From a virus (taxonomy: Duplodnaviria > Caudoviricetes), in the IMG/VR virus record IMGVR_UViG_3300035183_000127, positions 1 through 56,479 of that record: a stretch of 56,479 nucleotides of DNA; one strand, given 5' to 3'. Both the position numbers and the translations under genes were made by a program. This document shows, in pieces, positions 1 to 15,833 of this stretch. A model generated the notes under the pieces. It searched no databases. It saw only the letters and a program-made list of their open reading frames with translations, and was not told the origin of the DNA. Numbering within the stretch: the stretch's first letter is position 1; every line of letters starts with the position of its first letter.

Positions 1-126
1 GACAGCAGTACACCAAGTGCTCCTTTTGCTACCGCTTCTGCACAGCACGCGTCCACGCCTGCAAGCTTGTTGGCATAGATTTCGTCGACGCTTCCTGCTG
101 GGAAGACGATCAGGTCGCCGCTACCG
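1..126. repeat. Terminal direct repeat copy 1 (circular assembly overlap)
   Basis: 1-126 is identical to 56354-56479, and a reading frame runs straight through the junction. Confidence 0.95.
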
Positions 127-514
127 GAGACGCGGGCGCATCTGTGGAAGTAGTCAGCCAGAGGCACTCCGGTTGGCTTCCGCTCGATCAGGAAATCGAC
201 GACCCCACGTAGCGAGGTGGTGCCGTGATGGTCAGATGACAGCAATATGCCAATGCCCGGCGAATCGAGGTCGAGATCGAGTACAACCACGCGTTCTCCG
301 GTGCGCGCCCGCTGGATCGCGAATGCCGCCAAGCATGTGCTGCACCCCAGCCCGCCCTTGAACGAGTAGAAGACTACTACAGGTGGACCATCTTCTGGAG
401 CAACCCAGATAGGCGCATCATCGTCTGTGAACCACCCGGTCCGCGTGCGATTGTGACTCAGCGTCCAATCGCAGGACATGCTCTTTATGGCATGGTAGTT
501 GATCCTGTCGATTA
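1..514 (-). pseudogene. N-terminal/central part of a degenerate ParA/MinD-family (KGGVGR-variant) ATPase spanning the origin
   Basis: Manual translation gives ...GPPVVVFYSFKGGLGCSTCLAAFAIQRARTGERVVVLDLDLDSPGIG...GVVDFL...LIVFPAG..., in frame with ORF 55840..56409; deviant Walker A at 336-359. Confidence 0.85.
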
Positions 515-717
515 TCGACGAGATGCTTCGCCTCCGCGATGGCATACTGGATCCTCCTGTGTATCGGTGCAGTCGACCTGTTGATCTCGACCGAGAGCGA
601 AACGTCCTCCAGCAGCGCCACAAGGACGCCGATCTGCCTACGAAGCTCGCTACAGGTTGGACACGTCGAGCGACCTTGCAACTTCGCCTGCCGCTGCGTA
701 CCACTCGAGTTTTTCAC
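515..717 (-). CDS. Small phage hypothetical protein (CPTC motif), 5' part; interrupted by the ATPase insert
   Basis: ORF 418..717; joining at TCGAC to 55833 restores ...KHLVEAWARWQKTTEP* with an ATGA overlap onto the next gene. Confidence 0.6.
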
Positions 718-1048
718 CGACGACCTCCATCAGCCAAGGCGGGACGTCGTCGTGCTCACCATCCTCTATTGCGAGCACGACCTTTGTTCCAACGTCGCTG
801 AACATCGCAAGTCGAGAGTTCCAGTGCGGCTTCTCTTCTCCGTATACCGACGGGAAGTAGGCTTCAAGCCGGAAGTCTCCGTCCCTCGATTCGGACAGGC
901 TGTAAACCGCGACGCCATATTTGCCGCCACTTTCGGTGGCCTCCTTGCCAGCCTCGTCGACGGCCTTCCCCTTGTTGGATGCGGCACACACGAGGTACTG
1001 GTGCCCGTTCGTCCACCCCCACCTGTAAGCAACAACCACGTAGGTCAT
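650..1048 (-). CDS. Hypothetical phage protein
   Basis: 132-aa ORF overlapping its neighbours in a tightly packed leftward operon. Confidence 0.75.
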   Translation of the reverse strand: MTYVVVAYRWGWTNGHQYLVCAASNKGKAVDEAGKEATESGGKYGVAVYSLSESRDGDFRLEAYFPSVYGEEKPHWNSRLAMFSDVGTKVVLAIEDGEHDDVPPWLMEVVGEKLEWYAAAGEVARSLDVSNL

Positions 1049-1188
1049 TTCTTCTTCTCCTTCTTGACAGCCTTCCCGAGCAGCCCGAGCTTCTGCATGG
1101 TGCCGTACACGTACGCGTTGGCCCGGTCGCCAGTGAGGCCCCTCTTCTTGGCCTCACGCTTCAGTTTCTGCTCAACCTCTTTCGGCAT
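1045..1188 (-). CDS. Small basic hypothetical protein (AYVYGTM motif)
   Basis: AAGGAGG Shine-Dalgarno before ATG at 1188; 4-bp overlap with the next gene. Confidence 0.75.
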   Translation of the reverse strand: MPKEVEQKLKREAKKRGLTGDRANAYVYGTMQKLGLLGKAVKKEKKK

Positions 1189-1232
1189 AGCTACCTCCTT
1201 CAGTTGATCATGCGTAGTTCGTGTCGGAATCA

Positions 1233-1634
1233 CTACCGCACCTCGATGTCCGGCACGATTGCCTCCGGTTTGAACACCACGCGGTATTGGTACTTGCTGG
1301 CCTTCGATCCATCGATCTGTTCCGCGAAATATGTCACGTTGTCTGACAGGCCAAGGAAGTGCTTCTTATAGTCGTTCGGGCCGGTCTTGCACGTCACAGT
1401 TACTGCCACCGTTTCATTTGCTTTCCCGAGTGAGCACAGGCCCTCGATGACAAGCATGTACTCTCCGGTTATACCGTTGTAGAACACGATGCGCCGGTTG
1501 ATCTCAAAGTTATCTGCTGCCTTTGAGAGGTTCGCAGAAACGACGTGCGCGTCGCTACAACCAGCGGATCCAACAACGGCAGCCAAGATGGACAAGCCGC
1601 ACATGAGCTTTGCTACAGCCTTCATTGGTTTCAT
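1233..1634 (-). CDS. Conserved phage lipoprotein
   Basis: Signal peptide with lipobox SAGC; ADNFEINRRIVFYNGITG motif typical of a widespread phage lipoprotein family. Confidence 0.75.
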   Translation of the reverse strand: MKPMKAVAKLMCGLSILAAVVGSAGCSDAHVVSANLSKAADNFEINRRIVFYNGITGEYMLVIEGLCSLGKANETVAVTVTCKTGPNDYKKHFLGLSDNVTYFAEQIDGSKASKYQYRVVFKPEAIVPDIEVR

Positions 1635-1706
1635 CTTCAGCTCTCCCAATAAGCGCCTTGAATAGGCGCGCCTGCTACATCAGTCAGCCTGCTGTTGTTG
1701 TTTTGC

Positions 1707-1895
1707 TCACTTGATGAGTCGTTCGCGGAACTCTCGGCGCAGAGCGTCGCGTAGAAGGAACACCATCCACTGCGCGTGCAGCCTCGAAGGGTGTCGCCTA
1801 CCGGCGCACAGAAGAACGAAGCGCCAGAACGCGATCCTAATGACCAGATAGGTTGCGTACAGTGGGTTGAACATTCGCCTCAAGATCCGATACAC
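1707..1895 (-). CDS. Hypothetical protein
   Basis: 62-aa ORF in operon direction. Confidence 0.45.
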   Translation of the reverse strand: MYRILRRMFNPLYATYLVIRIAFWRFVLLCAGRRHPSRLHAQWMVFLLRDALRREFRERLIK

Positions 1896-1981
1896 CGGTG
1901 AATGTGCCCGTCAGACATCTCCTTGTGGGTATAGAACTCGGACAGGTTCTTTGTGATGCCGCAGCTACCGCACTTCTTCAT
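1880..1981 (-). pseudogene. Truncated N-terminal Zn-finger of an HNH-type endonuclease
   Basis: GGAGG SD, then MKKCGSCGITKNLSEFYTHKEMSDGHIHRCIGS* (33 aa). Confidence 0.55.
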
Positions 1982-2024
1982 ATTCCCTCCGTTCCATGGT
2001 CGAATGTCCGATTCGACCATCATT

Positions 2025-2450
2025 TTAGAACGGAGGACAATTAAAAGGGATGTCGGAATCCATATCCGCGATTCCGCCAGACGTGTCCACCGGCGATGCA
2101 GATGTTTTCTGCTCGACTTCGTCGCGCTTCACGGTGCGCCCGATAAGCTGGATGCGCTCCGCAACGATCTCGGTGACGTCGCGCTCGTTTCCGCTCTTGT
2201 CTGTCCACTTGCGCGTACGAAGGCGACCCTCGATGTAGATGAGGTCACCCTTCTTGGCGTACTTGCCGACCACATCTGCGAGGCGGTCCCAAGCGACGAT
2301 ACGGTGCCACTCGGTATCTTCGTCCACCTTCGACTTCCTGAACGTCGTGGCCACGTTGAATGAAGCCACAGACGTCTCTGCAGAGAGGTGCTTCACCTCC
2401 GGGTCTTTACCGATTCGGCCAAGTATGATGGCCCTATTCACGCTCGACAT
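2025..2450 (-). CDS. ssb: Single-stranded DNA-binding protein
   Basis: VNRAIILGRIGKDPE, TEWHRIV, IEGRLRTRKW motifs; acidic tail DSDIPF. Confidence 0.97.
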   Translation of the reverse strand: MSSVNRAIILGRIGKDPEVKHLSAETSVASFNVATTFRKSKVDEDTEWHRIVAWDRLADVVGKYAKKGDLIYIEGRLRTRKWTDKSGNERDVTEIVAERIQLIGRTVKRDEVEQKTSASPVDTSGGIADMDSDIPFNCPPF

Positions 2451-3330
2451 TACCACTCCTTTCGATGACAACACGCTTCTCCCACCGTCCACCGGTCGAG
2501 AACCGTTTCATGAACTCTTCGAACGACTCCCACGGCGGCAAAAGCTCCTTGATCGCTGCGTCCTTATCCACCTGATTGTTCTTCCAGTAGCGCCGCACCG
2601 TGACGCCGCCACCGGTTGCGCTTGTATCCCCAGCAAGATCCTTCAGCTTCTGCTTGATGGCGTCAGCCTGAGCCGAAAACTCCGCAATCTTGGCGTTCGT
2701 CTCGATCAGCGATGACGCCAACGACAACCACAGGCTGTCGTCCCTAGTCACGCAGTCGGTCGGGCGGATGTTCTTGTTGACGTACTTCTCGAAGAAGTCG
2801 TCCCACGCGCGCCGGATGTTGTCCCACAGCTTCTGGTCGGGCTTGTACTCGATGAAAAGGCCACCGCCCGGAGTCCACACGTAGAGCCCGACACGGTCGG
2901 AGCCGAACACCCTGTATTGGTGCTCAAGTTGCTCTGCATACTGTGGCTCGATCTCGCCCTTGAGCGCCTCCTTCCACGTCGACGACGCGGTGCCGCTGTA
3001 TGGGCACTTGATGTCGACGATCCAGTTGCCGGAGTAGAAGTCGAGAGAAGCAAGGTAGTCGCCACGGTACCCTACGATTGGCTCGCCAGTCTCGCTCAGC
3101 ACAAGCTCAAGCTCGGCGCGCGCCTTCTTCTCCATCTCCTTCCCGTACCTCATCGCGGCATTCTCGCCGATCCCTTCGCCGCTGACGAAGTAGTCGTACG
3201 CATCAGTGATAGAGCCGAATCGGCTGGAGCCTGTGACCATCGGGGTCATCGAGGCTGGCCTCTTCGTCCGCCTCAGCTTGTGCCACTCTTGCGACCCCTG
3301 CTCTATGTTCACGATCACGAGGTCGCTCAC
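2434..3330 (-). CDS. YqaJ/lambda-exonuclease-family 5'-3' exonuclease
   Basis: QGSQEW...R...AS, AMRYG...E, ASLD, DIKCP, Y..Q motifs. Confidence 0.9.
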   Translation of the reverse strand: MSDLVIVNIEQGSQEWHKLRRTKRPASMTPMVTGSSRFGSITDAYDYFVSGEGIGENAAMRYGKEMEKKARAELELVLSETGEPIVGYRGDYLASLDFYSGNWIVDIKCPYSGTASSTWKEALKGEIEPQYAEQLEHQYRVFGSDRVGLYVWTPGGGLFIEYKPDQKLWDNIRRAWDDFFEKYVNKNIRPTDCVTRDDSLWLSLASSLIETNAKIAEFSAQADAIKQKLKDLAGDTSATGGGVTVRRYWKNNQVDKDAAIKELLPPWESFEEFMKRFSTGGRWEKRVVIERSGNVERE

Positions 3331-3551
3331 GCCACCCTCCACACCCTGACGATCTCGCCCATCTTGCGGATCGTTACGTCGATCCTGATGCGCTTGGCAA
3401 CGGGATAGATGCTCGACCTCATTCTCAGCGGGACGTCGATGTACGAACCGACAGTCATGTTCCGCATCGCATTGGCCAACCCCGGAACACGCGTCCGCTT
3501 CTGAGGAGGGTTCGGGTCGCGCCGGATCTCGAAGATGACCTCTTCACTCAT
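3327..3551 (-). CDS. Small putative DNA-binding protein
   Basis: Ends in VRVWRVA; 4-bp overlap with the exonuclease start. Confidence 0.7.
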   Translation of the reverse strand: MSEEVIFEIRRDPNPPQKRTRVPGLANAMRNMTVGSYIDVPLRMRSSIYPVAKRIRIDVTIRKMGEIVRVWRVA

Positions 3552-3553
3552 GG

Positions 3554-4192
3554 CTACTGCACCTTTGCCCGCGGTGTGTGCCCAATCTCCTTCGCCTTGT
3601 CGGCGAGCTTCTGCCGCATACGTGCCCACAGTTCACGGTCGCCTGCGCCCTTGCATGCGAGGAATACGTACGACTTGGCCGACTCCCACTCGTCACCAGT
3701 CGTGACCCCTTCGACAGCGTCAGACAGTGCGGACTCGTCGACATGCTTTGACGGAGACGCTACGACGGCTGGCGTGTGCGCGTCAGCGTCATTGTCGCCC
3801 TCCGTTGGGATTGCGAATGTCTGGAGGGCGAAGTACTTGTAGGCGGCCGACATGGCTTTGTTGGTGGCCTTGTCGGCGGAATCCATCGCCTCACCGATGA
3901 ACGGGCCAGCGACGATCTCGCTGCCGTCCTCGTGGATGATGCGGTACTTGCCCTCGACCACGACGGAGAAGATGATGCCGCCATTCTTGGCAGCCTTCTC
4001 CGTGATTACGCGGTTCGAGTACGACGGCACGACGACCACCTTGTACTTCGCGTACAAGGACGACAGCGCATTCAGCACGTCGTCGATGCCGCGGAACATA
4101 TACCCCTGCTGCGTGTTCTTCCTCTGCTTGGAGATACCCTCTGACGAGAGTTCACCGATGATTGCCGCTACCGCGTTGATGACACCTGACAT
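3554..4192 (-). CDS. erf: ERF-family single-strand annealing recombinase
   Basis: GYMFRGIDDV, GEAMDSADKATNKAMSAAYKY, FAIPTEGDNDAD motifs. Confidence 0.9.
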   Translation of the reverse strand: MSGVINAVAAIIGELSSEGISKQRKNTQQGYMFRGIDDVLNALSSLYAKYKVVVVPSYSNRVITEKAAKNGGIIFSVVVEGKYRIIHEDGSEIVAGPFIGEAMDSADKATNKAMSAAYKYFALQTFAIPTEGDNDADAHTPAVVASPSKHVDESALSDAVEGVTTGDEWESAKSYVFLACKGAGDRELWARMRQKLADKAKEIGHTPRAKVQ

Positions 4193-4262
4193 CTTGCCCC
4201 CTTCGGTTGAGAACCCAGCCGCCACAGAGAGGTGCGGCGCCAGAATGCTACGTGTTGGACGG

Positions 4263-4271
4263 AGAATAGCA
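4263..4271 (-). promoter_or_regulatory. Extended -10 promoter for the recombination operon
   Basis: TG-C-TATTCT on the minus strand ~70 nt upstream of erf. Confidence 0.5.
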
Positions 4272-4354
4272 CGCCCGTTGACATGTGATAATAGATTTCG
4301 TTTCTGTTGCGTAAATACAACTACCGCATTCTTGGTATTGCGCTGAGAATTTTG

Positions 4355-4363
4355 TGGTATGCT
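4355..4363 (+). promoter_or_regulatory. Extended -10 promoter preceding the structured RNA/dnaB
   Basis: TG-G-TATGCT, 8 nt before the first helix at 4372. Confidence 0.6.
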
Positions 4364-4370
4364 CCGCTCC

Positions 4371-4750
4371 ACGTGGTCGGTGGGGTTCCCCCTAGCCGCC
4401 CCAGCTACGCAACGTAGCAACCGACCACGCCTCCACACTCTGGGGAAAGTGTGAGGCGCACTCCGCGCGTCAGCAGTGGGCTTGCATGGGCCGCCCGGAG
4501 CAGAACACCGACTCGACGCTACGGTCGTTAAACAATTCGCAGCGGGGTGCAACTCCCATACGACTGCGGGCTAGGCTGTATACCGTGCTGGCCGGGGAGC
4601 GTACGAGCGTTGCGTGCGCCGATACACGGTTCTACGAATGCGATCCCCTCTCCTACTCTCAACTTTTTGTTTGGGGGGTAGGGGGGGCTGTCCTGCGATC
4701 CCCATTATGGGGACAACGTAGCCACATGGGAGGGCGCAACCGCGCCCGGT
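4371..4750 (+). ncRNA. Candidate large structured RNA / RNA-based replication origin upstream of dnaB
   Basis: At least 9 helices plus 3 long-range loop pairings, a T-loop-like GGTGCAACTCC and a G6-TA-G7 tract; no credible CDS. Confidence 0.65.
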
Positions 4751-4763
4751 TAGGGAGATTTTC

Positions 4764-6089
4764 ATGACTTCTGATGCTACAAGGTCTATTGAGGCTGAAC
4801 AGGCACTACTTGGTTCTTTAATGCTGGATGGTGAATGTATCGACAGGGTAGAAGATGTTTCTGTTGAACATTTCTCTGTTGGTATTCACCGTCAGATTTA
4901 CTCTGCCATCATCTGGCTTTACGAGAATTCCAAGCCAACAGACATCGTGTCGGTCTTCGAGAGGCTTAGGGAGACTGGTCACGATGTCGAGATGCAGTAC
5001 CTGAATGACCTCGTTTCGTCCACACCAAGTTCTGCTGGTGTTGCCCGGTATGCAGAGGTCGTCAGGTCGAAGGCTCTTGAACGTGGTCTTGTAGCAGCAG
5101 GTTCGAGGATCATCGAGGTTGCTACGTCTGCCCTACCTACCGATGAGAAGCTCGACACAGCACAGTCCGAGATCGAGTCGGTTACGAGCAGGAGGGCACG
5201 CAGGGTTGCTAGGCACATCGGCGACATCGCAACCGAGTCCGTCAAGACGGTATCCGGCAGGTCTGAAGGGCGCGAGTCAGTCATACGTACAGGGATTGCT
5301 GCAGTCGACCGTGCCCTCTGTGGTGGACTCCGCAGGGGAAACCTTGTCATCGTTGCTGCCCGACCGTCTGTCGGGAAGACCGCGTTCGCACAGACCATCG
5401 GGATGTACGCTGCACGCGAACACTCGGTCATGATGCTTTCGATGGAGATGAGTTGCCGAGAGGTTGGCGACAGGGCCCTTGCACAGATCGGCAGCATCCC
5501 GCTGGACTGGATAATGTCGCCAGACCAGAACGACGAGTACTGGTCGCGCCTTGTTGATGCATCAGCCTTCTGCGGGCAGCTGAAGTTCTACGTCGACGAC
5601 CAGAGCGGCCTCTCGATCTTCGACGTCAAGACGAAGGCGAGGGCGCACAAGAGGAAGTCAGGACTCGACCTGTTGATCGTGGACTACCTGCAACTGATGG
5701 TCGGCAACCGAGAGAACCGGAACGCCGAGATCGAGGAGATCAGCCGAGGCCTGAAGGCGATTGCGAAGGAGCTTGACGTCGCCGTCGTAGCCCTGTCGCA
5801 GCTTAGTCGCAGGTGCGAGGAGCGTAACAACAAGAGGCCAACACTCTCCGACCTCCGTGACTCCGGAGCTATCGAGCAGGATGCAGACATCGTCATGATG
5901 CTGTACGCCGAGGAGCGCTACAATGACGACCCCGAGTGGAGGGGTATCCGTGAGCTTCTCATCGAGAAGAACAGGCAAGGCGGAGTGTGCTCCATACCAC
6001 TCATGTACATCGGCAACCTGACGAAGTTCGCACAGCTTCAAGGCGAACTCCCGAAGCGTCGTGGCAGGAGGGACGATGAATACTTCTGA
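4764..6089 (+). CDS. dnaB: Replicative DNA helicase, DnaB family
   Basis: EAEQALLG N-domain; AARPSVGKT, SMEM, VDYLQL, LSQLSR, DLRDSGAIEQDAD, KNRQG motifs. Confidence 0.98.
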   Translation: MTSDATRSIEAEQALLGSLMLDGECIDRVEDVSVEHFSVGIHRQIYSAIIWLYENSKPTDIVSVFERLRETGHDVEMQYLNDLVSSTPSSAGVARYAEVVRSKALERGLVAAGSRIIEVATSALPTDEKLDTAQSEIESVTSRRARRVARHIGDIATESVKTVSGRSEGRESVIRTGIAAVDRALCGGLRRGNLVIVAARPSVGKTAFAQTIGMYAAREHSVMMLSMEMSCREVGDRALAQIGSIPLDWIMSPDQNDEYWSRLVDASAFCGQLKFYVDDQSGLSIFDVKTKARAHKRKSGLDLLIVDYLQLMVGNRENRNAEIEEISRGLKAIAKELDVAVVALSQLSRRCEERNNKRPTLSDLRDSGAIEQDADIVMMLYAEERYNDDPEWRGIRELLIEKNRQGGVCSIPLMYIGNLTKFAQLQGELPKRRGRRDDEYF

Positions 6090-6282
6090 CGAAGAGTACA
6101 GGCACCAGTGTGAGGTGCGCTCCTTTCTTAGGATGAAGGCGTCCGGCCAGATGACGAGGGCCCTCGCACTCATCGGCAGGGTGCTCGTAACACGCGGTCA
6201 GGAGGCTGCAGACAGGATCAGGAGGGACGCGAACGAGCAGTGGGAAAAAGGCAACAGGGGAGAAGATGGGTGTTGGTGTTGA
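6076..6282 (+). CDS. Conserved small phage protein (RHQCEVR...QWEKGNRG)
   Basis: SD GGAGG; overlaps the end of dnaB. Confidence 0.75.
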   Translation: MNTSDEEYRHQCEVRSFLRMKASGQMTRALALIGRVLVTRGQEAADRIRRDANEQWEKGNRGEDGCWC

Positions 6283-6526
6283 CTACGTTCTGGTATTCTT
6301 GGCCAGCTTCGTCTTCGTCATGGTGAAGGCGTTCCAGCAGCTTAACGTGCAGCACGACAAGTTCGCGTGGGTCGTCCCTACATCCGTGACGATGGCAGTG
6401 TGTGAGGTGTTCGTGGTAGCCAACATCGCACACAACGGTTGGGGGTGGATCGTTATCCCGACCGGACTTGGAAGCGGGCTCGGGTGCATCGTCGCAATGG
6501 TGATCCATAGGAGGCTTCGTGGTTAA
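6266..6526 (+). CDS. Small 3-TM membrane protein
   Basis: Three hydrophobic segments; KAFQQLNV motif. Confidence 0.75.
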   Translation: MGVGVDYVLVFLASFVFVMVKAFQQLNVQHDKFAWVVPTSVTMAVCEVFVVANIAHNGWGWIVIPTGLGSGLGCIVAMVIHRRLRG

Positions 6527-7127
6527 ACGGGCATACGTTGAGTTGCCGGTCGGGTTCTCGTTCGCAGGTGGCGCGCTTCGGAACCCTCTGGTCGTAGGCA
6601 TCACTGGAACAGCAGGTTCTGGAAAGACTACTGCGGCGCGCATCTTGTGCGACAGGTACGACTTCTCCCGCGTCAGACTTGCTGAACCCATCAAAAAGAT
6701 GGCGCGCGCTCTCGGCCTCACGCACGACCAAGTCGACGGTCCGCTGAAGGAGATTCCGCTCGACGAGTTGTGCGGAAAGACTCCACGGTACGTGATGCAG
6801 ACTCTCGGGACCGAGTGGGGCCGCCGCACCATCGGGGAGGACATCTGGGTCAGGATCGCCCAGAAGGAGATCGGGAGGCTTGTGTCGAACGGGGTCTCCG
6901 TCGTGGTCGACGACGTCAGGTTTCCGGATGAGGCCGAGATGATCAAGAGGCTCGGTGGAGCGATGGTGCGCGTCGAGAACCCGGTCATCACGCAGTCAAC
7001 CGCGCACGAGAGTGAGCGGCACATTTTCAACATCGAGGTCGACTACGTCATCGTAAACGACGGATCGATTGCCGACCTCGGCATCGGTGTCGAGGGCGTC
7101 GTGTCCTCGCTTTTCATTGGGGTGTGA
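6519..7127 (+). CDS. Deoxynucleoside monophosphate kinase
   Basis: GITGTAGSGKTT P-loop, RYVMQTLGTEWGR, DDVRFPDE, HESE. Confidence 0.95.
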   Translation: MVKRAYVELPVGFSFAGGALRNPLVVGITGTAGSGKTTAARILCDRYDFSRVRLAEPIKKMARALGLTHDQVDGPLKEIPLDELCGKTPRYVMQTLGTEWGRRTIGEDIWVRIAQKEIGRLVSNGVSVVVDDVRFPDEAEMIKRLGGAMVRVENPVITQSTAHESERHIFNIEVDYVIVNDGSIADLGIGVEGVVSSLFIGV

Positions 7128-7128
7128 C

Positions 7129-7410
7129 ATGATCTTGAAAGAGGGAGTTGCTGAGGTCGGTTCGGTCGACAACCCGAAGGAGTCGGTCCTTCGCACGCTA
7201 CGAAGCGGAACCGAGTTCGCGGAGAAGTGTGAGTCTCCAGTGGTATTCGTCGTAGTTGCAGAGTCTGCAAACAATGAGAACGCGAACCTGTCGTTCATCG
7301 GCAGCACGATGTCGCCGGAGCAGATGTACGTTGCACTACCGGGTGCTGTCCGTGTCGTCATGGATACAATCAGCGACAGCGAGGTGAAAGGTGGGGAGGC
7401 GAAGAACTGA
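7129..7410 (+). CDS. Hypothetical protein
   Basis: 93-aa ORF filling the operon gap. Confidence 0.65.
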   Translation: MILKEGVAEVGSVDNPKESVLRTLRSGTEFAEKCESPVVFVVVAESANNENANLSFIGSTMSPEQMYVALPGAVRVVMDTISDSEVKGGEAKN

Positions 7411-7604
7411 GGTTGGGTTCGGCCTCTACGTACAGAAGTCTGGCCGGCCACGGTACATCATCGACATCAGGCCTCCATTCGTCCTGTACTCGAATGGGTG
7501 GCGACAGGTTGTACGCTTGCAGGCTCCAGACGTTCAAACGGTGGATGAGGGATTCGAGTTATGTCAGGCTCGACTCTGTACCGGAATTTTGTCTTGAGGG
7601 ATGA
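7391..7604 (+). pseudogene. Small hypothetical gene apparently split by a frameshift at ~7496
   Basis: Removing one G from ATGGGTGG joins ...VLYSNG to GDRLYACRLQTFKRW... Confidence 0.45.
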
Positions 7605-7962
7605 CGTTGTATGGGAAAGGGCAAAGGCGTTCATCGAAGCGAACAGGAAATCCGTCCTGCTTTCTGTTTCGGTATCGGAGGCATCTAAGCCGAGGACGCG
7701 CGACCAGAACGACTACGCTCGAGCACTCGTACGCGAGGTGGCCTCGAACGCGTGGGTGAATGGGAGACAGTTTTCTGCTGACGCTTGGTGGGAGTTCTTC
7801 GCTCGAGAGTTTGGGCCGTGCGACGAGGTAGAGCTTCCGAATGGGGAAGTCGTGAAGCGTAGGCGTTCGACGACGGAGATGTCGGCGAAAGCGTTCTCTG
7901 AGTTCATCGAGTCGATCCGCGAGTACGCTGCAAACACACTTGGTCTGGAGCTTACGCTATGA
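7561..7962 (+). CDS. ninB: NinB-family recombination protein
   Basis: RTRDQN...W..F...RSTTEMSAKAFSEFIE pattern. Confidence 0.85.
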   Translation: MSGSTLYRNFVLRDDVVWERAKAFIEANRKSVLLSVSVSEASKPRTRDQNDYARALVREVASNAWVNGRQFSADAWWEFFAREFGPCDEVELPNGEVVKRRRSTTEMSAKAFSEFIESIREYAANTLGLELTL

Positions 7963-8234
7963 GGTACCCGTCACTGAAGTTTGCGGCTGATGACGAAAGC
8001 TGCATCTCGTGCGGAGCGCGCGATGGAACTGTCGTACTAGCACACAGGAACGAAGGAAAGGGAATGGGGATCAAGGCCCCAGACTACTGGGCCCTAGACC
8101 TGTGTGCAGCGTGCCACCGGGAGTACGATCAAGGGTCGAAGATGTCGCGCGATGAGAAGAGGGCTTGGTTCAATGCACTCTACCCGAAGCAGGTTGAGCG
8201 TTGGGTCAAGAAGGGTCTGATGGTGATCGCGTAG
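7959..8234 (+). CDS. YbcO/DUF1364-like HNH-fold nuclease
   Basis: CISCG...VVLAHRN.GKGMGIKAPD...LCAACH..YD. Confidence 0.85.
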   Translation: MRYPSLKFAADDESCISCGARDGTVVLAHRNEGKGMGIKAPDYWALDLCAACHREYDQGSKMSRDEKRAWFNALYPKQVERWVKKGLMVIA

Positions 8235-8242
8235 GGGGCACG

Positions 8243-8467
8243 ATGCTTTGCACGAAGTGCGGCAGCAAAACAATTACAGTCAATTCCCGTTACATCATTG
8301 GGGGCCGCAGGCGCAGGAGGGAGTGCAGAGGTTGCGGGTACAGGTTCACGACAGTCGAGTTTGCGGCTGTGTCGACTGCGTCGTCGGTCGTCAGCCGGGT
8401 CAAGCGTTGGAGAGAAAAGCCGAACGCTACTCTCGAAGAGCTTGATGCTATCCTCGAGGATGAGTAA
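8243..8467 (+). CDS. NrdR-like N-terminal zinc-ribbon protein
   Basis: CTKCG...SR...RRRRECRGCGYRFTTVE; no ATP-cone. Confidence 0.85.
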   Translation: MLCTKCGSKTITVNSRYIIGGRRRRRECRGCGYRFTTVEFAAVSTASSVVSRVKRWREKPNATLEELDAILEDE

Positions 8468-8490
8468 GAACGGAGTGGTGGTTGGAGGCG

Positions 8491-8925
8491 ATGGACAAGA
8501 TAAAGGACGCCGACGACGCGCAAATGTACCTCGCCATCGCCTACGACGACCCGCTGGCGCAGGTCGACTCGGTGGCGAGGGTGTGGGGCGCACACCAGAT
8601 CGTGTACCGAGGAGTCAAGTGGTACCCTAGCACAGACTCTACATGCAGGGACGCGTCGTCCAGCATCCAGTGGGAGACGCCGGATGAGATCCACGACCGC
8701 CGGGAGCGGGAGCACTGGGTCGACGCGTTCGACGGAGCAATAGAAGACCTGCGTGACGACCTCGAGAGGGCGATCCTGTGGGCCGTGTACGCGAACGAGG
8801 TCGGGTCACAGGTATGGAGGCGCGGCCCATTCAGCGAGATGGCGCGCGAAAAAGTGAAGGCGCTCTTAAGGAGCGCCCTCCGAAACATCTCGCCGCCACT
8901 CAGGAGGCGAGGTGTCGACGTCTAG
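8491..8925 (+). CDS. Putative late-gene regulator (Q-like antiterminator)
   Basis: Last gene of the nin-like operon; W...YP...DGAIEDL...RAIL...Y pattern; function inferred from position. Confidence 0.55.
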   Translation: MDKIKDADDAQMYLAIAYDDPLAQVDSVARVWGAHQIVYRGVKWYPSTDSTCRDASSSIQWETPDEIHDRREREHWVDAFDGAIEDLRDDLERAILWAVYANEVGSQVWRRGPFSEMAREKVKALLRSALRNISPPLRRRGVDV

Positions 8926-9236
8926 AGGCGGGTCGGGAACACCGGGACGGCCCCCTCCTTGACGAAGACGCCGATTGCATCCGGCGCGATGCGTCCGTAG
9001 TAGCGGCCCCCACCATTCGAGACGAGGGCACCCTCGACGTCGTCGTTCGTCGAGATCACGCCGACAAGCTGGAACCCTTCAGGCTTATCGACGTACGGGA
9101 TGGCCTTGACGAGTGACTTCACGACCCGTTGGCTCGACAGGTCGTCCTTCCAGACTGGCATCGGCGTCCTGCTCTTGGCGGCATAGATCGCGGAAGCCTG
9201 CCGGTTGCTTTCGGTGATGGTCTCGATGTCACGCAT
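8922..9236 (-). CDS. Hypothetical protein
   Basis: AAAGGAG SD; last gene of the leftward accessory operon. Confidence 0.7.
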   Translation of the reverse strand: MRDIETITESNRQASAIYAAKSRTPMPVWKDDLSSQRVVKSLVKAIPYVDKPEGFQLVGVISTNDDVEGALVSNGGGRYYGRIAPDAIGVFVKEGAVPVFPTRL

Positions 9237-9270
9237 TGCTTCTCCTTTCATTCAGCCGGTTGGTTGGGTT

Positions 9271-9453
9271 TCATGCTGCCGACGCGATACGATACTGTAT
9301 GGACCGCACCTCGCGCGACTCGGCAGCGTACACCTCCTCGAGGATCTCGCGCTGGTACTCTATCCACTCGTCATCCTCGGTCCGCATCTCGCACGCGCCA
9401 CCGAGAGGTCTGTGCGGGAACCTGTAAGCATTGCACCTGCAGACGCGTTTCAT
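9271..9453 (-). CDS. Small Cys/His protein (CRCNAYRFPHR..GGAC)
   Basis: AGGAGG SD; metal-binding-like motif. Confidence 0.7.
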   Translation of the reverse strand: MKRVCRCNAYRFPHRPLGGACEMRTEDDEWIEYQREILEEVYAAESREVRSIQYRIASAA

Positions 9454-9462
9454 GTCAACCTC

Positions 9463-9672
9463 CTAGTGGATGGAGTACACGGTCTTAACCTTCTTGGCGT
9501 ATCCGCCGACGTCACCGAGGATTCGTCTGATCGATTCTGCGTTAACCTGGATGTCCATCTCGTATACATGGACGCCGATCCGGTTAAGGTTCTTGGCAGC
9601 GTTGATCGCGTCGGCCTTACTCATGCAGCAGTCGACGTCCTTTCCAAGGTGACTGACCAAGTAGAACTTCAT
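9463..9672 (-). CDS. Hypothetical protein
   Basis: SD plus 69-aa ORF. Confidence 0.7.
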   Translation of the reverse strand: MKFYLVSHLGKDVDCCMSKADAINAAKNLNRIGVHVYEMDIQVNAESIRRILGDVGGYAKKVKTVYSIH

Positions 9673-9688
9673 TCCCTAGCCTCCTTTG

Positions 9689-10027
9689 CTAGTCGTGGTA
9701 GTTACCAATTGCACAGTGCAGAAGCTCGTGCCCAAGCACCTCGAACCGGATCAGGTCGCCCATGTTACGCGGCATCGCGGCGTAGATCACGCAGTGTTTC
9801 CTGTCCAAGTAGTAGACGTTGCAGCCCACGTTGTCTGACCGCCGGACCTGTTCGACGGTAAGGTTGGGCCACATCCCGAACGAGCGGCACGTCTCGACGA
9901 CTTCGTCCTTCGGAAGGATGCGAAGCTCGACAGAGAACTTGTCGTCCATCCGCTGCTGCCTGATCGGTTGCGCGTCAGCGCAGCTTGCGACGGCTGCCAG
10001 CATTGCGACGAAGGTTGCGGTTTTCAT
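9689..10027 (-). CDS. Exported small protein with HExxH (zincin-like)
   Basis: Signal peptide; EVLGHELLHC. Confidence 0.7.
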   Translation of the reverse strand: MKTATFVAMLAAVASCADAQPIRQQRMDDKFSVELRILPKDEVVETCRSFGMWPNLTVEQVRRSDNVGCNVYYLDRKHCVIYAAMPRNMGDLIRFEVLGHELLHCAIGNYHD

Positions 10028-10040
10028 TGTCGCCTCCGTT

Positions 10041-10062
10041 GGGGCCGGGTTCCCCCGGCCCC
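10041..10062. terminator. GC-rich intergenic hairpin (terminator or processing/stability element)
   Basis: GGGGCCGGG-TTCC-CCCGGCCCC. Confidence 0.5.
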
Positions 10063-10069
10063 CGTTACT

Positions 10070-11047
10070 TCAGGAAACTGCCTCGACGAGGGCGTCGGCG
10101 GCGCGCGACTTGATCTCGTCACCCCTGCCGAACCACGCGGAGTCGAGGCGCGTGTCATTCCGCCCCATGACGTGGTCGACGTACCACGTAACGGAGTTAA
10201 GCAGACCCCACGCGGTGCCCTTCGCCTCAGGCGTCGTGGCCATCGGCTCATCACCGTCGAATAGCGCGAGGATCTTCTTGAACGACCGCGTCTCCTCGAT
10301 GGGCTTGTTGTTCGGGTGCGGCAAGACCTTGGCGAGGAAGTCCTTGGCGAAGGACCGGTCGACCTTGGACTCGGCAAGCAGGCGCGCGTTGATGAGAAAA
10401 CGATCCCACGCGTCATGCACGATGCCGAGCTTGCGGCGCACCTCGTCGATGTCGAGGTGCTCGTAGTGGTTGACCTTGACGCAGTCGACGACTGCGCCAT
10501 CCTTCTTCGACGCCTCCGCCACCGCCATGCGGAGCGTGTTGTTGCACACGACGCGGATCGAGGTGAACCGGAACGTCGACGCCATCGTGCCGTCGTACGA
10601 CGTGGCGGCGAGGATATACGGGCGGACAACGTCATGCCCGATCACTGGTGCCCCGTCGTTCACCCGGGCGAGGGCCCAGATTTTGCGGCCACCGAGCAGG
10701 GCCCCAGCGACCTCCATGCGGAACCCGGCGCGGTGGACCATGTCCCGCATGAACTGCAGGATCTGCCACGGTTGGACGACCTTGTAGTCGTCCGAGACGA
10801 TGGAGAGGAAGCCGCCCGTGTCGCTCCTGTAGAGCGCCACCCGGTTCGGTACGACCCTCATGTTGCCGCCGCTTACCGGCCCGTAGAAAACCTCGGAACT
10901 GAGGGCCGACCACGCGAGCCCAGCCTTGTGCCGCCAGACCTCGATTGGTGCGTCCGAGTCAATCTGAGCCCCGAACCGGTGCCACGGTTCGGCACCGGCG
11001 AATGCGATGGCGGGGCGGCTAGTCGTGAAATCCAGATCGTGTGCCAT
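10070..11047 (-). CDS. DUF932/DUF945 (LGT_TIGR03299-like) protein
   Basis: MAH...PWH..G, YKVVQP, GAL.GGRKIWALA, SYDGT...IRVVCNNTL, GTAWGLLN.VT.YVDH. Confidence 0.92.
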   Translation of the reverse strand: MAHDLDFTTSRPAIAFAGAEPWHRFGAQIDSDAPIEVWRHKAGLAWSALSSEVFYGPVSGGNMRVVPNRVALYRSDTGGFLSIVSDDYKVVQPWQILQFMRDMVHRAGFRMEVAGALLGGRKIWALARVNDGAPVIGHDVVRPYILAATSYDGTMASTFRFTSIRVVCNNTLRMAVAEASKKDGAVVDCVKVNHYEHLDIDEVRRKLGIVHDAWDRFLINARLLAESKVDRSFAKDFLAKVLPHPNNKPIEETRSFKKILALFDGDEPMATTPEAKGTAWGLLNSVTWYVDHVMGRNDTRLDSAWFGRGDEIKSRAADALVEAVS

Positions 11048-11059
11048 TCCATTCTCCTT

Positions 11060-11398
11060 TCAGGCGGCCTGCGACAGCCGCGTGCCCATGCAGTTAATCA
11101 GGAAGTACTGCGGGTTAAAGTCGCCCCACTCGGCAGCCTTCGGCCCGAGCAGGGACCCCTTCTTCGCGACGTTGTCGTACACCGCGAAGCAGTCTTGAGA
11201 AAACCTCTCGCACAACGCAGCCGCCTCATCGGGCGACGGTTCGCGGCTGATCTCGCAAATGAGAGTCGGTTCGGTGTCCGACTCAGCGAAGCATACCCCC
11301 ATTGGGTGGAGACCCATGTCGGTCATTGCGGAGAGTACCTCGTGCGGGTACACGTCCCCGCCCTTGTTGGTCGTCAGACCGAAGTTGATCATGATCAT
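11060..11398 (-). CDS. Putative SAM lyase (T3 SAMase-like) protein
   Basis: INFGL...EPTL...LCERFSQDCFAVY resembles the phage SAM-lyase motif arrangement. Confidence 0.5.
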   Translation of the reverse strand: MIMINFGLTTNKGGDVYPHEVLSAMTDMGLHPMGVCFAESDTEPTLICEISREPSPDEAAALCERFSQDCFAVYDNVAKKGSLLGPKAAEWGDFNPQYFLINCMGTRLSQAA

Positions 11399-11400
11399 CC

Positions 11401-11610
11401 CTAGCCCTCCATCTTAACGGTAACGTACAGCGGCTCAAACACGAACTCTCCTTCTGCGGCGAGAGCCGCCGACGCTGCAGAATGAGACAGCTTGACCGTC
11501 TCATACTCGGTCACGCCGTCCGAGATGGTGACGCGGAACTTCTTCTTAGGCTTGGGGGCCGCGACCCAAGCCCTAAGAATCTCGTCGAAGATGTATTCAC
11601 ACTGTTTCAT
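11401..11610 (-). CDS. Hypothetical protein
   Basis: GGAGG SD plus 69-aa ORF. Confidence 0.7.
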   Translation of the reverse strand: MKQCEYIFDEILRAWVAAPKPKKKFRVTISDGVTEYETVKLSHSAASAALAAEGEFVFEPLYVTVKMEG

Positions 11611-11687
11611 TCAGCCTCCGTTGTTTGTGCCAATCATGGTAGGACGCGCGACTTGTGCATATCCCGCGTTCACGCGATGTCACTCCA

Positions 11688-11954
11688 CTACTCGAATTTG
11701 TGTCCGCGACGGATGACCCGCCCGGGCCCGAGGTGCGCGTACAGCACCTCTGAGATCGTGGCGCACGTGTACCCCGGCGCGCGGTCGTACCAATGCGCCT
11801 TCTTGATCTGTGCGGTTGTCATGCAGAGGATGCGCTTAGCATCCTCGACCGGGTACGCCACGACGCGGTCGTGTGGCGACCCTTGCTCGTAGGCGCCCCA
11901 GAATTGGCGCCACGCCGAGTATTCAAGAAGGACGCTCTTCTTTGTTACCCTCAT
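11688..11954 (-). CDS. Hypothetical protein
   Basis: 4-bp overlap with the NUDIX stop. Confidence 0.7.
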   Translation of the reverse strand: MRVTKKSVLLEYSAWRQFWGAYEQGSPHDRVVAYPVEDAKRILCMTTAQIKKAHWYDRAPGYTCATISEVLYAHLGPGRVIRRGHKFE

Positions 11955-12568
11955 GCTGCCTCCTTACGGGCCATCTCGGCCCACTCGACGAACGCCTCTG
12001 GCTTCGTGTGCGCGTGCGGGATGCCCCCGTACACGATGACGCCGATACGGTGCATCGCGTCAGCGATGTACCTGTACATCTCGCGCGGGTCGTCGTCTGC
12101 CAAGTCGACGTTTGGCCACGCGCCAGCCGCCCCAGCGGCGACTAGCTTCGCGTCGGTTGCCTTCGTGTTCGTAGCGCGGGCGGCAGCGCGCAGCAAGGGA
12201 AGCATCTCGGTCGCCCGCTTGATCTTGAGGGCGACCTTGTCGTTCCCCATGCCGCTGTTGGCAAGCTCGTCGAGGGTCAACTCGACGGGCTCCACACGGC
12301 CCCTCTCCTTCCACTCGGCGCGCCGCTCGGCGCGCTCGAACGAGAACCACATAACAAGCTTGCCGTCGACAAGCTTGTCGTTGACGGCGTGTACGAAGCC
12401 GCCCACGTTCCACCCCTCTTCTGCCGCCTCACGGACGGCAGCCTGAACCGGGTTTTCACCCGGCTCGACCTTACCTCCGGGCAGGCCGACTCCGCCGCCC
12501 GGGCGGGTCGTGCCCGCGATCCTGCCGTTCGGCAGGATTGCGACCGCGAATGCTGCGAAGACTTCCAT
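11951..12568 (-). CDS. NUDIX hydrolase with C-terminal extension
   Basis: Nudix box GGKVEPGENPVQAAVREAAEEG. Confidence 0.9.
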   Translation of the reverse strand: MEVFAAFAVAILPNGRIAGTTRPGGGVGLPGGKVEPGENPVQAAVREAAEEGWNVGGFVHAVNDKLVDGKLVMWFSFERAERRAEWKERGRVEPVELTLDELANSGMGNDKVALKIKRATEMLPLLRAAARATNTKATDAKLVAAGAAGAWPNVDLADDDPREMYRYIADAMHRIGVIVYGGIPHAHTKPEAFVEWAEMARKEAA

Positions 12569-12631
12569 GCTTTTATCCTCGCCCCCGACTCCCCGAGGCG
12601 CGGGTGGCAGCACCGTGCTGCAGATGTGCGA

Positions 12632-12661
12632 ACTATGAGCTTGTCAGATGTCAGTTGTCAA
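12632..12661 (-). promoter_or_regulatory. Sigma70-type promoter of the leftward early operon
   Basis: TTGACA-N18-CATAGT with three TGACA at a 7-bp period. Confidence 0.7.
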
Positions 12662-12719
12662 CCACTCACATTCGCTTGTTGCGTAAAAGAGACACCAAAA
12701 CGCGAACTTTCCCGATCTG

Positions 12720-12728
12720 TGGTAGTCT
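12720..12728 (+). promoter_or_regulatory. Extended -10 late promoter (pR'-like)
   Basis: TG-G-TAGTCT followed ~35 nt later by a terminator. Confidence 0.5.
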
Positions 12729-12762
12729 GAATCCGGGGGCGAAGTGCGCCCTCACGATTCGT

Positions 12763-12792
12763 AGCGGCCCGGTGCTCGGGCCGTTTGTTTTT
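12763..12792 (+). terminator. Intrinsic terminator (tR'-like)
   Basis: AGCGGCCCG-GTGCT-CGGGCCGTT then TGTTTTT. Confidence 0.7.
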
Positions 12793-12872
12793 CTGGGCGG
12801 TTGCCCGACAGAACCGTCGAACCCGTTCGCCAGACTGCAGACGGTCGGATGCCCCACGTCACGGGGCCCTAT

Positions 12873-12947
12873 AGCGGGGTAGCTCAGGGGCAGAGCAGAC
12901 GGCTCATAACCGTCAGGTCGCGGGTTCGATTCCCGCCCCCGCAACCA
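12873..12947 (+). tRNA. tRNA-Met (CAT anticodon), initiator-like acceptor stem
   Basis: Full cloverleaf: GCGGGG/CCCCGC, GCTC/GAGC, GACGG-CTCATAA-CCGTC, GCGGG-TTCGATT-CCCGC, encoded CCA. Confidence 0.95.
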
Positions 12948-12964
12948 CTCGATAGGTGGAATCT

Positions 12965-13060
12965 ATGGAGATCGATACTCTGATCGACATCCTGCTGGTC
13001 GCCGTTTTTGTGGGCGTTTTCCTGTGGGCGTTCGTGTCGTGCACTCCGTGGCGCAGGTAG
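12965..13060 (+). CDS. Single-TM micro-protein (31 aa)
   Basis: MEIDTLIDILLVAVFVGVFLWAFVSCTPWRR; not in the ORF track. Confidence 0.6.
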   Translation: MEIDTLIDILLVAVFVGVFLWAFVSCTPWRR

Positions 13061-13069
13061 GCGGAAACT

Positions 13070-13168
13070 ATGGCAAATGAAACTCTGATTGCAATCCTGC
13101 TGGTTGCTGTCGTCGCGGCGATGATGGTCTGGTCGTTCTTGTCTGACGGGGACGACGATGAGCAGTAG
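13070..13168 (+). CDS. Single-TM micro-protein (32 aa), paralog of the previous gene
   Basis: MANETLIAILLVAVVAAMMVWSFLSDGDDDEQ; overlaps the endolysin start. Confidence 0.6.
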   Translation: MANETLIAILLVAVVAAMMVWSFLSDGDDDEQ

Positions 13169-13589
13169 GAGTATCGAGGAGTTGCTTCCGGAAGTCGCGG
13201 AGGCGGCGTGGCGGTGGCTTGACGACTGTGCAGCGAACAAGCTCGACTTGATCATCACCTGCACTTACAGGTCGCCAGAGGAGCAGGACGAACTGTTCGC
13301 AATCGGCAGAACGAAACCGGGTCGGATCGTCACGAACGCGCGCGCGTGGGAGAGTTGGCACCAATACCGCCGCGCGATTGACTTCGTGCCGGTTCGCGCA
13401 GGGAAGCCGGTATGGGGCACGCTGGGTGACGATTGGGCGCTGTGGGAAGCAATCGGTCAGCTTGCGGAGGCGAGAGGATTCGAGTGGGCCGCTAGGTGGC
13501 GCACGATGAGGGAGTACGCCCACATCCAGATCACTGGCGGGCTCACTGTTGCTGAGGCGCGAGATCAGGTTTTCGGGAAGTGCGGATAG
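13158..13589 (+). CDS. Endolysin, peptidase M15 family (L-Ala-D-Glu peptidase-like)
   Basis: YRS.EEQ..L.A.GRT.PG.IVTNA...SWHQY..AID, EYAHIQ. Confidence 0.92.
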   Translation: MSSRSIEELLPEVAEAAWRWLDDCAANKLDLIITCTYRSPEEQDELFAIGRTKPGRIVTNARAWESWHQYRRAIDFVPVRAGKPVWGTLGDDWALWEAIGQLAEARGFEWAARWRTMREYAHIQITGGLTVAEARDQVFGKCG

Positions 13590-13594
13590 AGGAG

Positions 13595-13957
13595 ATGGGT
13601 CAAATGGCAGAACCGAGCGGCGGCATCGACCCCGGTCTGACGGCGAAGGGGGTCGCAATCGCCTCCTCGGCGGTCGGCGCAGCGGTGATGGCGGCGACGA
13701 AGCCGCCTGAGAGTCGGATGCAACTCCTTCGGTACGGGATCGTATCAATCGGTTCCGGGTTTCTATTCGCGGAACTCGCGGCTGAAGTTGCTTCGCGCTA
13801 CCTCGGTATTCCTGCGACGAAGCTTGTGCTGCCAGCAGGCGGACTCGTCGGCGCAGTAGCGTGGGGCGTGTGGGGCTACGCTCGCCACATTCTTGATCAA
13901 GTCTCGTCGTCGGATGATGGTCTGATTCCGGCGATCAAGAAAGCAATCTTCGGATGA
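13595..13957 (+). CDS. Putative holin
   Basis: About 3 TM segments, between endolysin and spanin; possible dual start M-G-Q-M. Confidence 0.7.
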   Translation: MGQMAEPSGGIDPGLTAKGVAIASSAVGAAVMAATKPPESRMQLLRYGIVSIGSGFLFAELAAEVASRYLGIPATKLVLPAGGLVGAVAWGVWGYARHILDQVSSSDDGLIPAIKKAIFG

Positions 13958-14776: not shown

Positions 14777-14885
14777 GGAGTGCATGGACAACCTGATCGA
14801 CGACCTGAACGAAACTATCGAGGGGTGGCGGTTCGAGATCTCGTATCTCGACCGTTCGATCAGGTACGCGAGCGCCACGCAATGA
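14715..14885 (+). CDS. Small Cys-rich hypothetical protein
   Basis: CCKCEEC; ATGA overlap with the next ORF. Confidence 0.5.
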   Translation: MTADQVEAVVGLALRNCCKCEECMDNLIDDLNETIEGWRFEISYLDRSIRYASATQ

Positions 14886-15788: not shown

Positions 15789-15791
15789 GCG

Positions 15792-15816: not shown

Positions 15817-15833
15817 GTGTAGTGCGTAGCGCG

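Follow-up and report, generated by a model that had tools for sequence, protein, structure and literature searches.

The 56,479-bp record IMGVR_UViG_3300035183_000127 of a virus (Duplodnaviria; Caudoviricetes), called the window below over its whole length, contains a gap of 572 bp (4193-4763) between the divergent genes erf (minus strand) and dnaB (plus strand). This region is non-coding, stands under purifying selection and carries a real RNA-type hairpin, the 3′ arm of which is a split run of guanines (G6-UA-G7), and the homologues of the element lie in the same direction as the genes downstream of them. The comparisons of sequence suggest a cis-acting leader RNA that would control transcription of the operon behind it, here the dnaB operon; we give this reading slightly less than an even chance, and within it we infer the promoter, the transcript ends and the action on transcription. 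The RNA belongs to a widespread phage RNA family that has no entry in Rfam 15.

What makes the element worth attention is that a large and strongly conserved RNA, not catalogued in Rfam, heads replication and packaging operons of phages, and that its most conserved module, the split G tract, is abundant in viral contigs and belongs to the type that yields primers of replication in mitochondria. If this is true, any function of the RNA, be it control of the polymerase, formation of a primer or action as a decoy, would be an RNA solution where textbook phages use proteins, and the motif is a simple handle for finding such phages. An earlier reading of the letters alone (the sequence-only reading) had proposed at this place an RNA-primed origin of replication, an R-loop, replacing an initiator protein.

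A conserved non-coding RNA ahead of dnaB

Three viral contigs (L002, L003 and L004), the DnaB proteins of which are 98%, 98% and 94% identical to that of the window, span the whole gap. Positions 4364-4763 are 96.2% identical to the window in L002 and 90.5% in L004, and positions 4193..4363 are 91.8% and 87.0% identical, whereas the third codon positions of dnaB, erf, the exonuclease gene and the dNMP kinase gene are 70-80% (L002) and 64-70% (L004) identical. That is to say, third codon positions in the neighbouring genes change several times faster than the gap, which shows that the latter is under purifying selection. As for strain variants, found in contigs from two microbial-mat metagenomes, a contig covering 4517-4703 has 2 differences, and one covering 4167-4340 has 11 differences and 2 gaps.

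The sole long open reading frame (ORF) of the gap, 4486-4767, the stop codon of which overlaps the ATG of dnaB, is broken by an indel of 1 nt in L002 and L003 and matched no Pfam family, and tblastn with the O protein of KL4, an unnamed ORF of Raharianne and an O-like protein of L400 found nothing in 4192-4763 at E<=10. Therefore, the gap is neither a gene nor the remnant of one, and a decayed initiator gene was rejected on these same grounds. Compared with shuffled sequences, the minimum free energy of the leader region has a z-score of -2.35 for the plus strand and a weaker one, -1.56, for the minus strand. By its conservation, its indel pattern and the pairing of its hairpin, the region is a folded RNA element of the plus strand, in agreement with the sequence-only reading, and not a gene. 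At its upstream edge, a rightward extended -10 (TG-G-TATGCT) can be read by eye at 4355-4363 and is kept in all three relatives, and the consensus scan found no other promoter- or terminator-like site between the RNA and dnaB. The parts of the region are as follows.

4193..4363, no strand assigned: divergent promoter region, with a leftward promoter-like site at 4315-4288 (consensus scan) and a putative rightward extended -10
4364..4763, plus strand: predicted leader RNA of the dnaB operon, non-coding and structured, ~390 nt, recognised by identity, broken ORF and fold, with no Rfam match
4372..4429, plus strand: 5′ hairpin with perfect 10-bp arms at 4372-4381 and 4420-4429
4478..4492, plus strand: GGCC hairpin GGGCUUGCAUGGGCC; distant homologues have GGGCCUGUAUGGGCC
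4544..4557, plus strand: T-loop-like hairpin GGG-GUGCAACU-CCC; GGUGCAAYUCC does not vary among homologues, and the stem shows covariation
4594..4597, plus strand: conserved GGGG motif ~80 nt 5′ of the G hairpin, in the CCGGGGG column block; the consensus fold pairs it with an upstream CUCC
4638..4698, plus strand: split-G-tract hairpin, with pyrimidine arm 4645-4660, U-rich loop 4661-4672 and G6-UA-G7 arm 4673-4687; invariant in L002-L004
4639..4648, plus strand: first copy of TGCGATCCCC, at the base of the pyrimidine arm
4694..4703, plus strand: second copy of TGCGATCCCC, the 5′ half of the next small hairpin, in which CCCC 4700-4703 pairs with GGGG 4709-4712
4732..4747, plus strand: hairpin GGGCGC-AACC-GCGCCC just 5′ of the ribosome-binding site, with a compensatory change from G-C to A-U in L004
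4753..4766, plus strand: Shine-Dalgarno sequence GGGAGA and ATG of dnaB, read from the sequence

Against Rfam 15, positions 4150-4850 gave only two matches, both at chance level (E<=10), and six full-length homologues gave only chance-level matches at E<=5; the Tymo_tRNA-like matches on two homologues, with 19-21 bits, are likewise of chance level. A tmRNA or tRNA-like gene was rejected, the only gene found by ARAGORN being the tRNA-Met at 12873. We take the T-loop-like hairpin to resemble the GGUGCNAAUCC-like hairpin of cobalamin riboswitches; this likeness of GGUGCAAYUCC was set aside when no Rfam riboswitch matched the window (E<=10) or the six homologues (E<=5). A presumed likeness of GUCGUUAAACAAUUC to the boxA consensus of rrn or lambda was dropped too, the stretch not being conserved in L004. 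In a phage collection, no DNA homologue was found with 4250-4770 (distant mode) or with 1-20000 (near mode), and local blastn on loci fetched via DnaB or Erf similarity gave no homologue of the gap except the three close relatives; nhmmer gave no match. DnaB searches in metagenome and genome collections returned relatives of at most 46% identity, mostly cellular genes.

The hairpin at 4732-4747, of which a metagenome contig has the variant GAGCGC..GCGCTC, is kept by compensatory change directly ahead of the Shine-Dalgarno sequence, and this would suit a leader that is specific to dnaB and acts on translation or mRNA stability. According to this explanation, GGGAGA would be masked by the UCUCC arm or by the 5′ CUCC, and the G tract would serve as an anti-anti-Shine-Dalgarno sequence. 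The UCUCC in the arm is complementary to GGAGA, and RNAalifold, run on three close sequences, pairs CUCC 4367-4370 with GGAG 4755-4758. However, these three sequences are near-identical and the masking helix shows no covariation, and homologues of the element precede unrelated genes with different start regions; we regard such a translational leader as quite improbable.

The split-G hairpin and its relatives in other phages

The tract G6-TA-G7 (GGGGGGTAGGGGGGG, 4673-4687), its pyrimidine partner (CCCCTCTCCTACTCTC, 4645-4660) and the 10-bp direct repeat TGCGATCCCC (4639-4648 and 4694-4703) are all present as the sequence-only reading had described them, and the pairing which it proposed between the two arms is that of the minimum-free-energy hairpin and is kept in every relative examined. 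G runs are depleted in the window, GGGGGG occurring 6 times against 27.5 +/- 6.7 in shuffled sequences, and three of these six occurrences fall inside the split G tract; G5-NN-G5 occurs twice against 0.09 expected, a number reached by none of 100 shuffles. Chance does not account for the G tract. As evidence, the 10-mer repeat is weaker: when up to one mismatch is allowed, TGCGATCCCC occurs 5 times genome-wide, which is unremarkable against 5.3 expected, and a repeat of 10 nt flanking the hairpin was reached by 1 of 300 local shuffles. Flanking direct repeats were also considered as a feature of the family and rejected as a general one, the 5% level being reached by 7 of 43 members.

At least 120 viral contigs contain the exact 15-mer, and at least 24 of the 120 exact matches listed have one common layout, judged by eye, which consists of a pyrimidine arm with UA or UAC, an A/U upper stem, a U-rich loop, the G arm and then YUUYC. 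The motif is found in both AT-rich and GC-rich phages, and Rfam has no family for the 20 hairpin loci tested. For a pairing test and a covariance model (R1), 54 hairpins from all groups were used, with the window left out. Pairing holds in 93.3% of cells, compared with 85.8% in shuffles (reached by none of 500) and 58-78% with slid partners. In the seven pairs of the lower stem, the only variation is C/U opposite G, and all four pairs of the upper stem have compensatory change. Since G-U on the G strand would be a C-A mismatch on the other strand, the fold belongs to the RNA of the G strand; and because selection keeps the tract paired to the pyrimidine arm, an RNA hairpin is favoured over a free G tract. 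Model R1, the score of which leans heavily on the G tract itself, gives a single hit in the window at 4638-4698 (40 bits, E 2.8e-12; next score 7.4 bits), which places the window hairpin within the motif of a pyrimidine arm paired to two G runs 1-2 nt apart, an A/U upper stem and a U-rich loop. In 100 viral loci derived via DnaB or Erf (578,892 bases), it gives no hits at E<=0.01, so the motif is no general companion of DnaB or Erf. G6TAG6 has 6 matches in 5 of 401 bacterial genomes (one bacterial phylum) against, by our count, 23 for the reversed control, and because it is so rare there, the tract is taken as a viral feature.

Beyond the hairpin, a second one, NNGG-UGCAAYU-CCNN, is common to the window, L323, L338 and L365, and its stem covaries (GGGG/CCC in the window, GAGG/CCUC in L323, CUGG/CCAG in L365). 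The pattern GGTGCAAYTCC-N105-135-G6TAG6 is found in 11 viral contigs, that is, the three close relatives and 8 new ones, and the latter, judged by sequence, carry the same RNA of ~300 nt. The blocks of the homologues that match window 4478-4700 are GGGCCUGUAUGGGCC, GGCAGGA..ACAC, GGCC..CCGGGGG and the split-G hairpin. The window itself has the parts by which this RNA is defined: G6UAG6-7 with a GGUGCAAYUCC hairpin 105-135 nt upstream of it, a GGCC hairpin and the CCGGGGG block. Both in the window clade and at 6 of 6 further loci (L522, L525, L526, L527, L529 and L531), the RNA is co-directional with the ORFs behind it, and in L529 it follows a divergent promoter region, like the window RNA. 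The order of genes in the further loci is as follows.

L527: RusA, the RNA, then primase/helicase
L529: divergent repressor, the RNA, then RNase H (L529:1659-2270, phrog_531 4.4e-45)
L525 and L526: the RNA, followed by two small ORFs and an HNH endonuclease
L522: the RNA, then TerL
L531: the RNA, then ORFs without assigned function

The wobble pairs of the lower stem also bear on the explanation that the element works as DNA, i.e., as an origin bound by a protein or as a packaging or recombination site, or that it is what remains of a lost initiator. Other contigs do contain G7TAG7 with a perfect C-run partner and tandem repeats, some of them at contig ends or after TerL, and the element occupies the place where KL4 (annotated O) and Raharianne (unnamed ORF) have a gene upstream of dnaB. 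In the hairpin, however, the lower stem is dominated by G-U wobble, a C-A mismatch on the other strand; 4100-4900 has no iterons, and TerS is 12 kb off. As to a remnant, the gap has no protein similarity to O-like proteins, and the indels that break the frame stand amid conserved sequence. We hold this group of explanations to be very unlikely.

The exact tract has in fact a second context, which consists of a C run, TTG, G7TAG7 and then arrays of tandem repeats of 6-8 nt (L292, L304, L307, L324, L343, L350, L351, L353, L359, L369, L390 and others). Several of these tracts stand at the ends of contigs; in L277, L314 and L339, related ones are found just downstream of TerL. This context is probably a terminal-repeat or concatemer-junction DNA element of T7-like phages, with a presumed likeness to the terminal repeat of T7. 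In the literature, a full-text search with the tract gave no phage among the titles of the matches listed; the complement C7TAC6, called an 'interrupted poly-C', is reported for control regions of bird and fish mitochondria.

For an unbiased sample of the tract, a further family (family C) was collected through a shared 5′ motif, CGUGGGGCRGAAACYUCA, which lies 60-110 nt upstream of the G hairpin, the G tract being absent from the search pattern. It comprises at least 120 further loci (L401-L520), with an element of ~150 nt (e.g., L402:387-530 and L408:387-530) that is not in Rfam 15. Among the loci listed, 100 sequences are unique, 99 with a split G tract and one without; the split is UA in 81, A in 9, U in 8 and AA in 1. 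The element is made up of a CGGGAAACCG hairpin, UGGGGC-RGAAA-CUUCA, AUGACGG(G)UGACGGCA, the pyrimidine arm, the split G tract and CAUUUCUUAAAAUC.GGGUUCAGGCA, and the U-rich CAUUUCUU that follows the hairpin gives it a terminator-like appearance. The 5′ motif has no match in the window with up to 3 mismatches, and the window shares only the hairpin module with family C. It was also observed that the purines of GGGGC-R-GAAAC and GGGGGGC-R-UUUC covary, A with A and G with G, in every sequence looked at. Of 30 loci examined, 10 have an exonuclease gene on the same strand behind the element, 3 an FmdB-like gene and 2 a phrog_12661 gene. In L399, an operon of exonuclease, DnaB-like helicase, RusA and primase follows, and the usual place of the element is directly 5′ of such an exonuclease-DnaB-RusA-primase operon.

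Several features of family C would also suit an early non-coding RNA acting in trans, which as a decoy or sponge would take up some factor of the host or a defence protein binding G- or pyrimidine-rich RNA, while dnaB would simply lie downstream. Promoter-like sites, read by eye, are found directly upstream (TTGACG-17-TATTGG in L401, TAATAT in L402), the element stands alone between converging genes in L397 and L398, and conservation among unrelated phages is high, 99 of 100 sequences having the split G tract; the occurrence in AT-rich and GC-rich phages alike suggests a universal target. In the window, however, no terminator-like site separates the element from dnaB, and the window-type homologues are always co-directional with the next genes. 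An action in trans is considered improbable.

Possible control of transcription or priming of replication

According to the cis-acting reading that we favour, transcription would start rightward from an early promoter in the erf/dnaB gap and continue into dnaB, and the tract would form the 3′ arm of the last large hairpin in a structured leader of ~300-390 nt. The RNA would be cis-acting, affecting the transcript of which it is part and the RNA polymerase that makes it, through control of elongation of the attenuator or antiterminator type, which would set the transcription entering the operon behind, the helix of pyrimidine arm and G arm being the decision helix. Control of transcription is favoured because the direction is constant in the window-type family, because the genes downstream differ, being those of replication in some phages and of packaging in others, and because the last hairpin of family C has a U-rich tail.

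Several points weigh against this. First of all, the rightward promoter was not reported by the consensus scan, which gave only the leftward site at 4315-4288. The tail 3′ of the split-G hairpin in the window is CUGUCCUG; because there is no U tract, this hairpin is not itself a terminator, and no terminator-like site, with GC-rich hairpin and U tract, occurs in 3900-5000. Compensatory change is found in 7 of 36 consensus pairs, in an alignment based on sequence, and is thin outside the hairpins. Moreover, L397 and L398 have the operon on the strand opposite to the element, which there faces a repressor gene; a strict leader would not be placed in this way. Finally, the near-invariance of the split G tract, present in 99 of 100 family C sequences, is not explained by a plain regulatory hairpin.

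Among known systems, the put RNAs of HK022 are phage RNAs just past early promoters which act on transcription without a protein; one source (PMC9378689) describes put as ~70 nt with two stem-loops, binding to the zinc-binding domain of beta', and places putR ~270 nt downstream of the PR start. Like put, the window RNA would be co-transcribed with its operon, lying within ~0-390 nt of the presumed start. Unlike put, it is ~300-390 nt long, contains six or more helices together with a T-loop-like hairpin and a split G tract, and there is one hairpin hit in the window where HK022 has two put copies. Since put is ~70 nt with two stem-loops, the window RNA is not a put RNA. With riboswitch and attenuator leaders it shares a large multi-helix leader, and the last hairpin of family C is terminator-like.

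The origin proposed by the sequence-only reading starts from the tract itself. The early transcript would stall or stay hybridised at G6-UA-G7, as an R-loop or a hybrid G-quadruplex; its 3′ end would prime the leading strand, the displaced strand would admit the phage DnaB, and the pyrimidine arm, as antagonist, would switch the transcript from the one role to the other, mRNA or primer. The resemblance of the tract to the mitochondrial conserved sequence block II, or CSB II, on which that reading leaned, holds for its form: according to two papers (PMC3488243, PMC4176368), a quadruplex in nascent RNA or in an RNA-DNA hybrid stops transcription at CSB II and makes the primer. As in CSB II, the G runs are split by 1-2 bases and lie on the non-template strand, with G6TAG7 ~300 nt past the presumed start, and 8 of the 99 family C tracts have the form G6AG7. 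Unlike in CSB II, a complementary pyrimidine arm under selection goes with the phage tract in every case; the CSB II sequence is not known to have such an arm. A further difference is that no T7-like single-subunit polymerase was found in the phage by scans of PHROGs, Pfam and NCBIfam, which also counts against an R-loop origin here.

Profile searches with the same three collections, made without a structure-based search of the hypothetical ORFs, agree with the statement that the phage has no recognisable initiator, loader, primase or polymerase. The ORF 51381-52712 (plus strand, 443 aa) was considered as a hidden initiator and rejected; it matches phrog_284 'exonuclease', has a weak N-terminal helix-turn-helix (HTH) and has no PDB match, and its Atlas neighbours, with HTH and calcineurin-like phage phosphoesterases, are a lead only. 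The position in the slot of an initiator gene is likewise upheld, the closest relatives by DnaB having a gene there, annotated as replication protein O in KL4 and unnamed in Raharianne. For an R-loop origin it also speaks that most contexts of the element are replication modules (dnaB, primase/helicase, RNase H in L529, exonuclease-DnaB-primase), and that in L397 and L398 the element is flipped relative to the operon and still adjacent to it, which an origin would tolerate better than a leader. The ParA/MinD-like gene across the ends of the record, with no integrase seen, hints at plasmid-like carriage, and the rarity of the tract in cellular genomes is a further point for such an origin.

However, the hairpin lies directly 5′ of O-like initiator genes, between them and a cro-like gene, in L384/L396 and in L388/L400, where it is no stand-in for an initiator. 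The RNA and an initiator are thus not mutually exclusive, contrary to what a replacement would imply. Full-length homologues also precede HNH and terminase genes (L522, L525 and L526), the pairing of the G tract to the pyrimidine arm is kept by selection, 4100-4900 contains neither an AT-rich block for unwinding nor a family of repeats with three copies or more, and the consensus scan found no antisense promoter-like site within the RNA. Of the earlier idea, the RNA element and the failure to find an initiator stand; the co-occurrence with O-like genes, the HNH and terminase contexts and the paired state of the tract speak against an R-loop origin, and the part 'replacing an initiator' is weakened. 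An R-loop or hybrid origin is, in our judgement, unlikely.

The hairpin might also be the phage counterpart of CSB II, working as a switch coupled to transcription where replication operons begin. When closed, it would yield dnaB mRNA; when the G tract is captured by template or non-template DNA, in an R-loop or a hybrid quadruplex, transcription would stop and leave a primer for helicase loading, and in phages without an initiator, this one included, that would be the whole origin. We consider this switch doubtful, and it is kept alive mainly because the ordinary readings leave the near-invariance of the G tract unexplained; if true, it would link the origin logic of phages and mitochondria.

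In ColE1, RNA II starts at a promoter located several hundred bases upstream and is long and folded, with a G-rich segment near the site of replication. The window RNA would be similar in these respects, as a long folded transcript with a G-rich segment near replication functions. Unlike ColE1, 4364-4763 has no promoter-like site on the minus strand for an analogue of RNA I (by consensus scan, which is a weak test), there is no match to a plasmid RNA of Rfam or to plasmid or phage DNA, and the phage hairpin motif is found elsewhere together with O-like initiators. An origin of the lambda type occupies the same slot, the O gene of KL4 and the unnamed ORF of Raharianne abutting dnaB; unlike it, the window has there no ORF, no O-like remnant and no AT-rich block, and repeats in 4100-4900 are of two copies only.

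Gene neighbourhood and other observations

The two genes that bound the gap are the following.

3554..4192, minus strand: erf, an ssDNA-annealing protein, at the head of the leftward operon (phrog_155 1.3e-30; Pfam ERF 1.3e-17)
4764..6089, plus strand: dnaB-type replicative helicase (Pfam DnaB_C 6.7e-80, DnaB 1.1e-24; phrog_19 5.8e-103)

The ATG of erf is at 4192-4190, with GAAGGGGG just before it, and behind erf the leftward operon contains a RecE/YqaJ-like exonuclease, SSB and an RDF-like gene. After dnaB, the rightward genes encode a DUF7696 protein, a dNMP kinase, NinB, an HNH protein and an NrdR-like zinc ribbon. The cumulative GC skew has its minimum near 4000; since this coincides with the switch in gene direction, it is uninformative on the origin.

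The record has a 126-bp terminal repeat and a CheckV completeness of 76%. A gene for a ParA/MinD-like P-loop ATPase spans the contig ends, 3-704 (minus strand) being joined with 55840-56353 (minus strand), and because it does so, the 'terminal repeat' is the overlap of a circular or permuted genome. The N-terminal half of this ATPase matches the NCBIfam KGGVGR-variant AAA ATPase with 83.8 bits (cut-off 90 bits), and its Walker A is FKGGLGCST. Since no integrase was seen in this phage, plasmid-like carriage is possible.

In addition, a tRNA-Met gene (anticodon CAT) is located at 12873-12947 (plus strand), between the early region and the lysis genes. The ORF 40048-50952 (plus strand) encodes a protein of 3634 aa, which was scanned against PHROGs only; its matches (phrog_11358, phrog_21376 and the DarB-like phrog_10089) are confined to the C-terminal quarter, residues ~2774-3632, and the first 2700 residues have none. 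The ORF 14914-15387 (plus strand) has a PagP-like lipid A acylation match (phrog_3600 4.4e-13) and could possibly be a moron that modifies the host surface.

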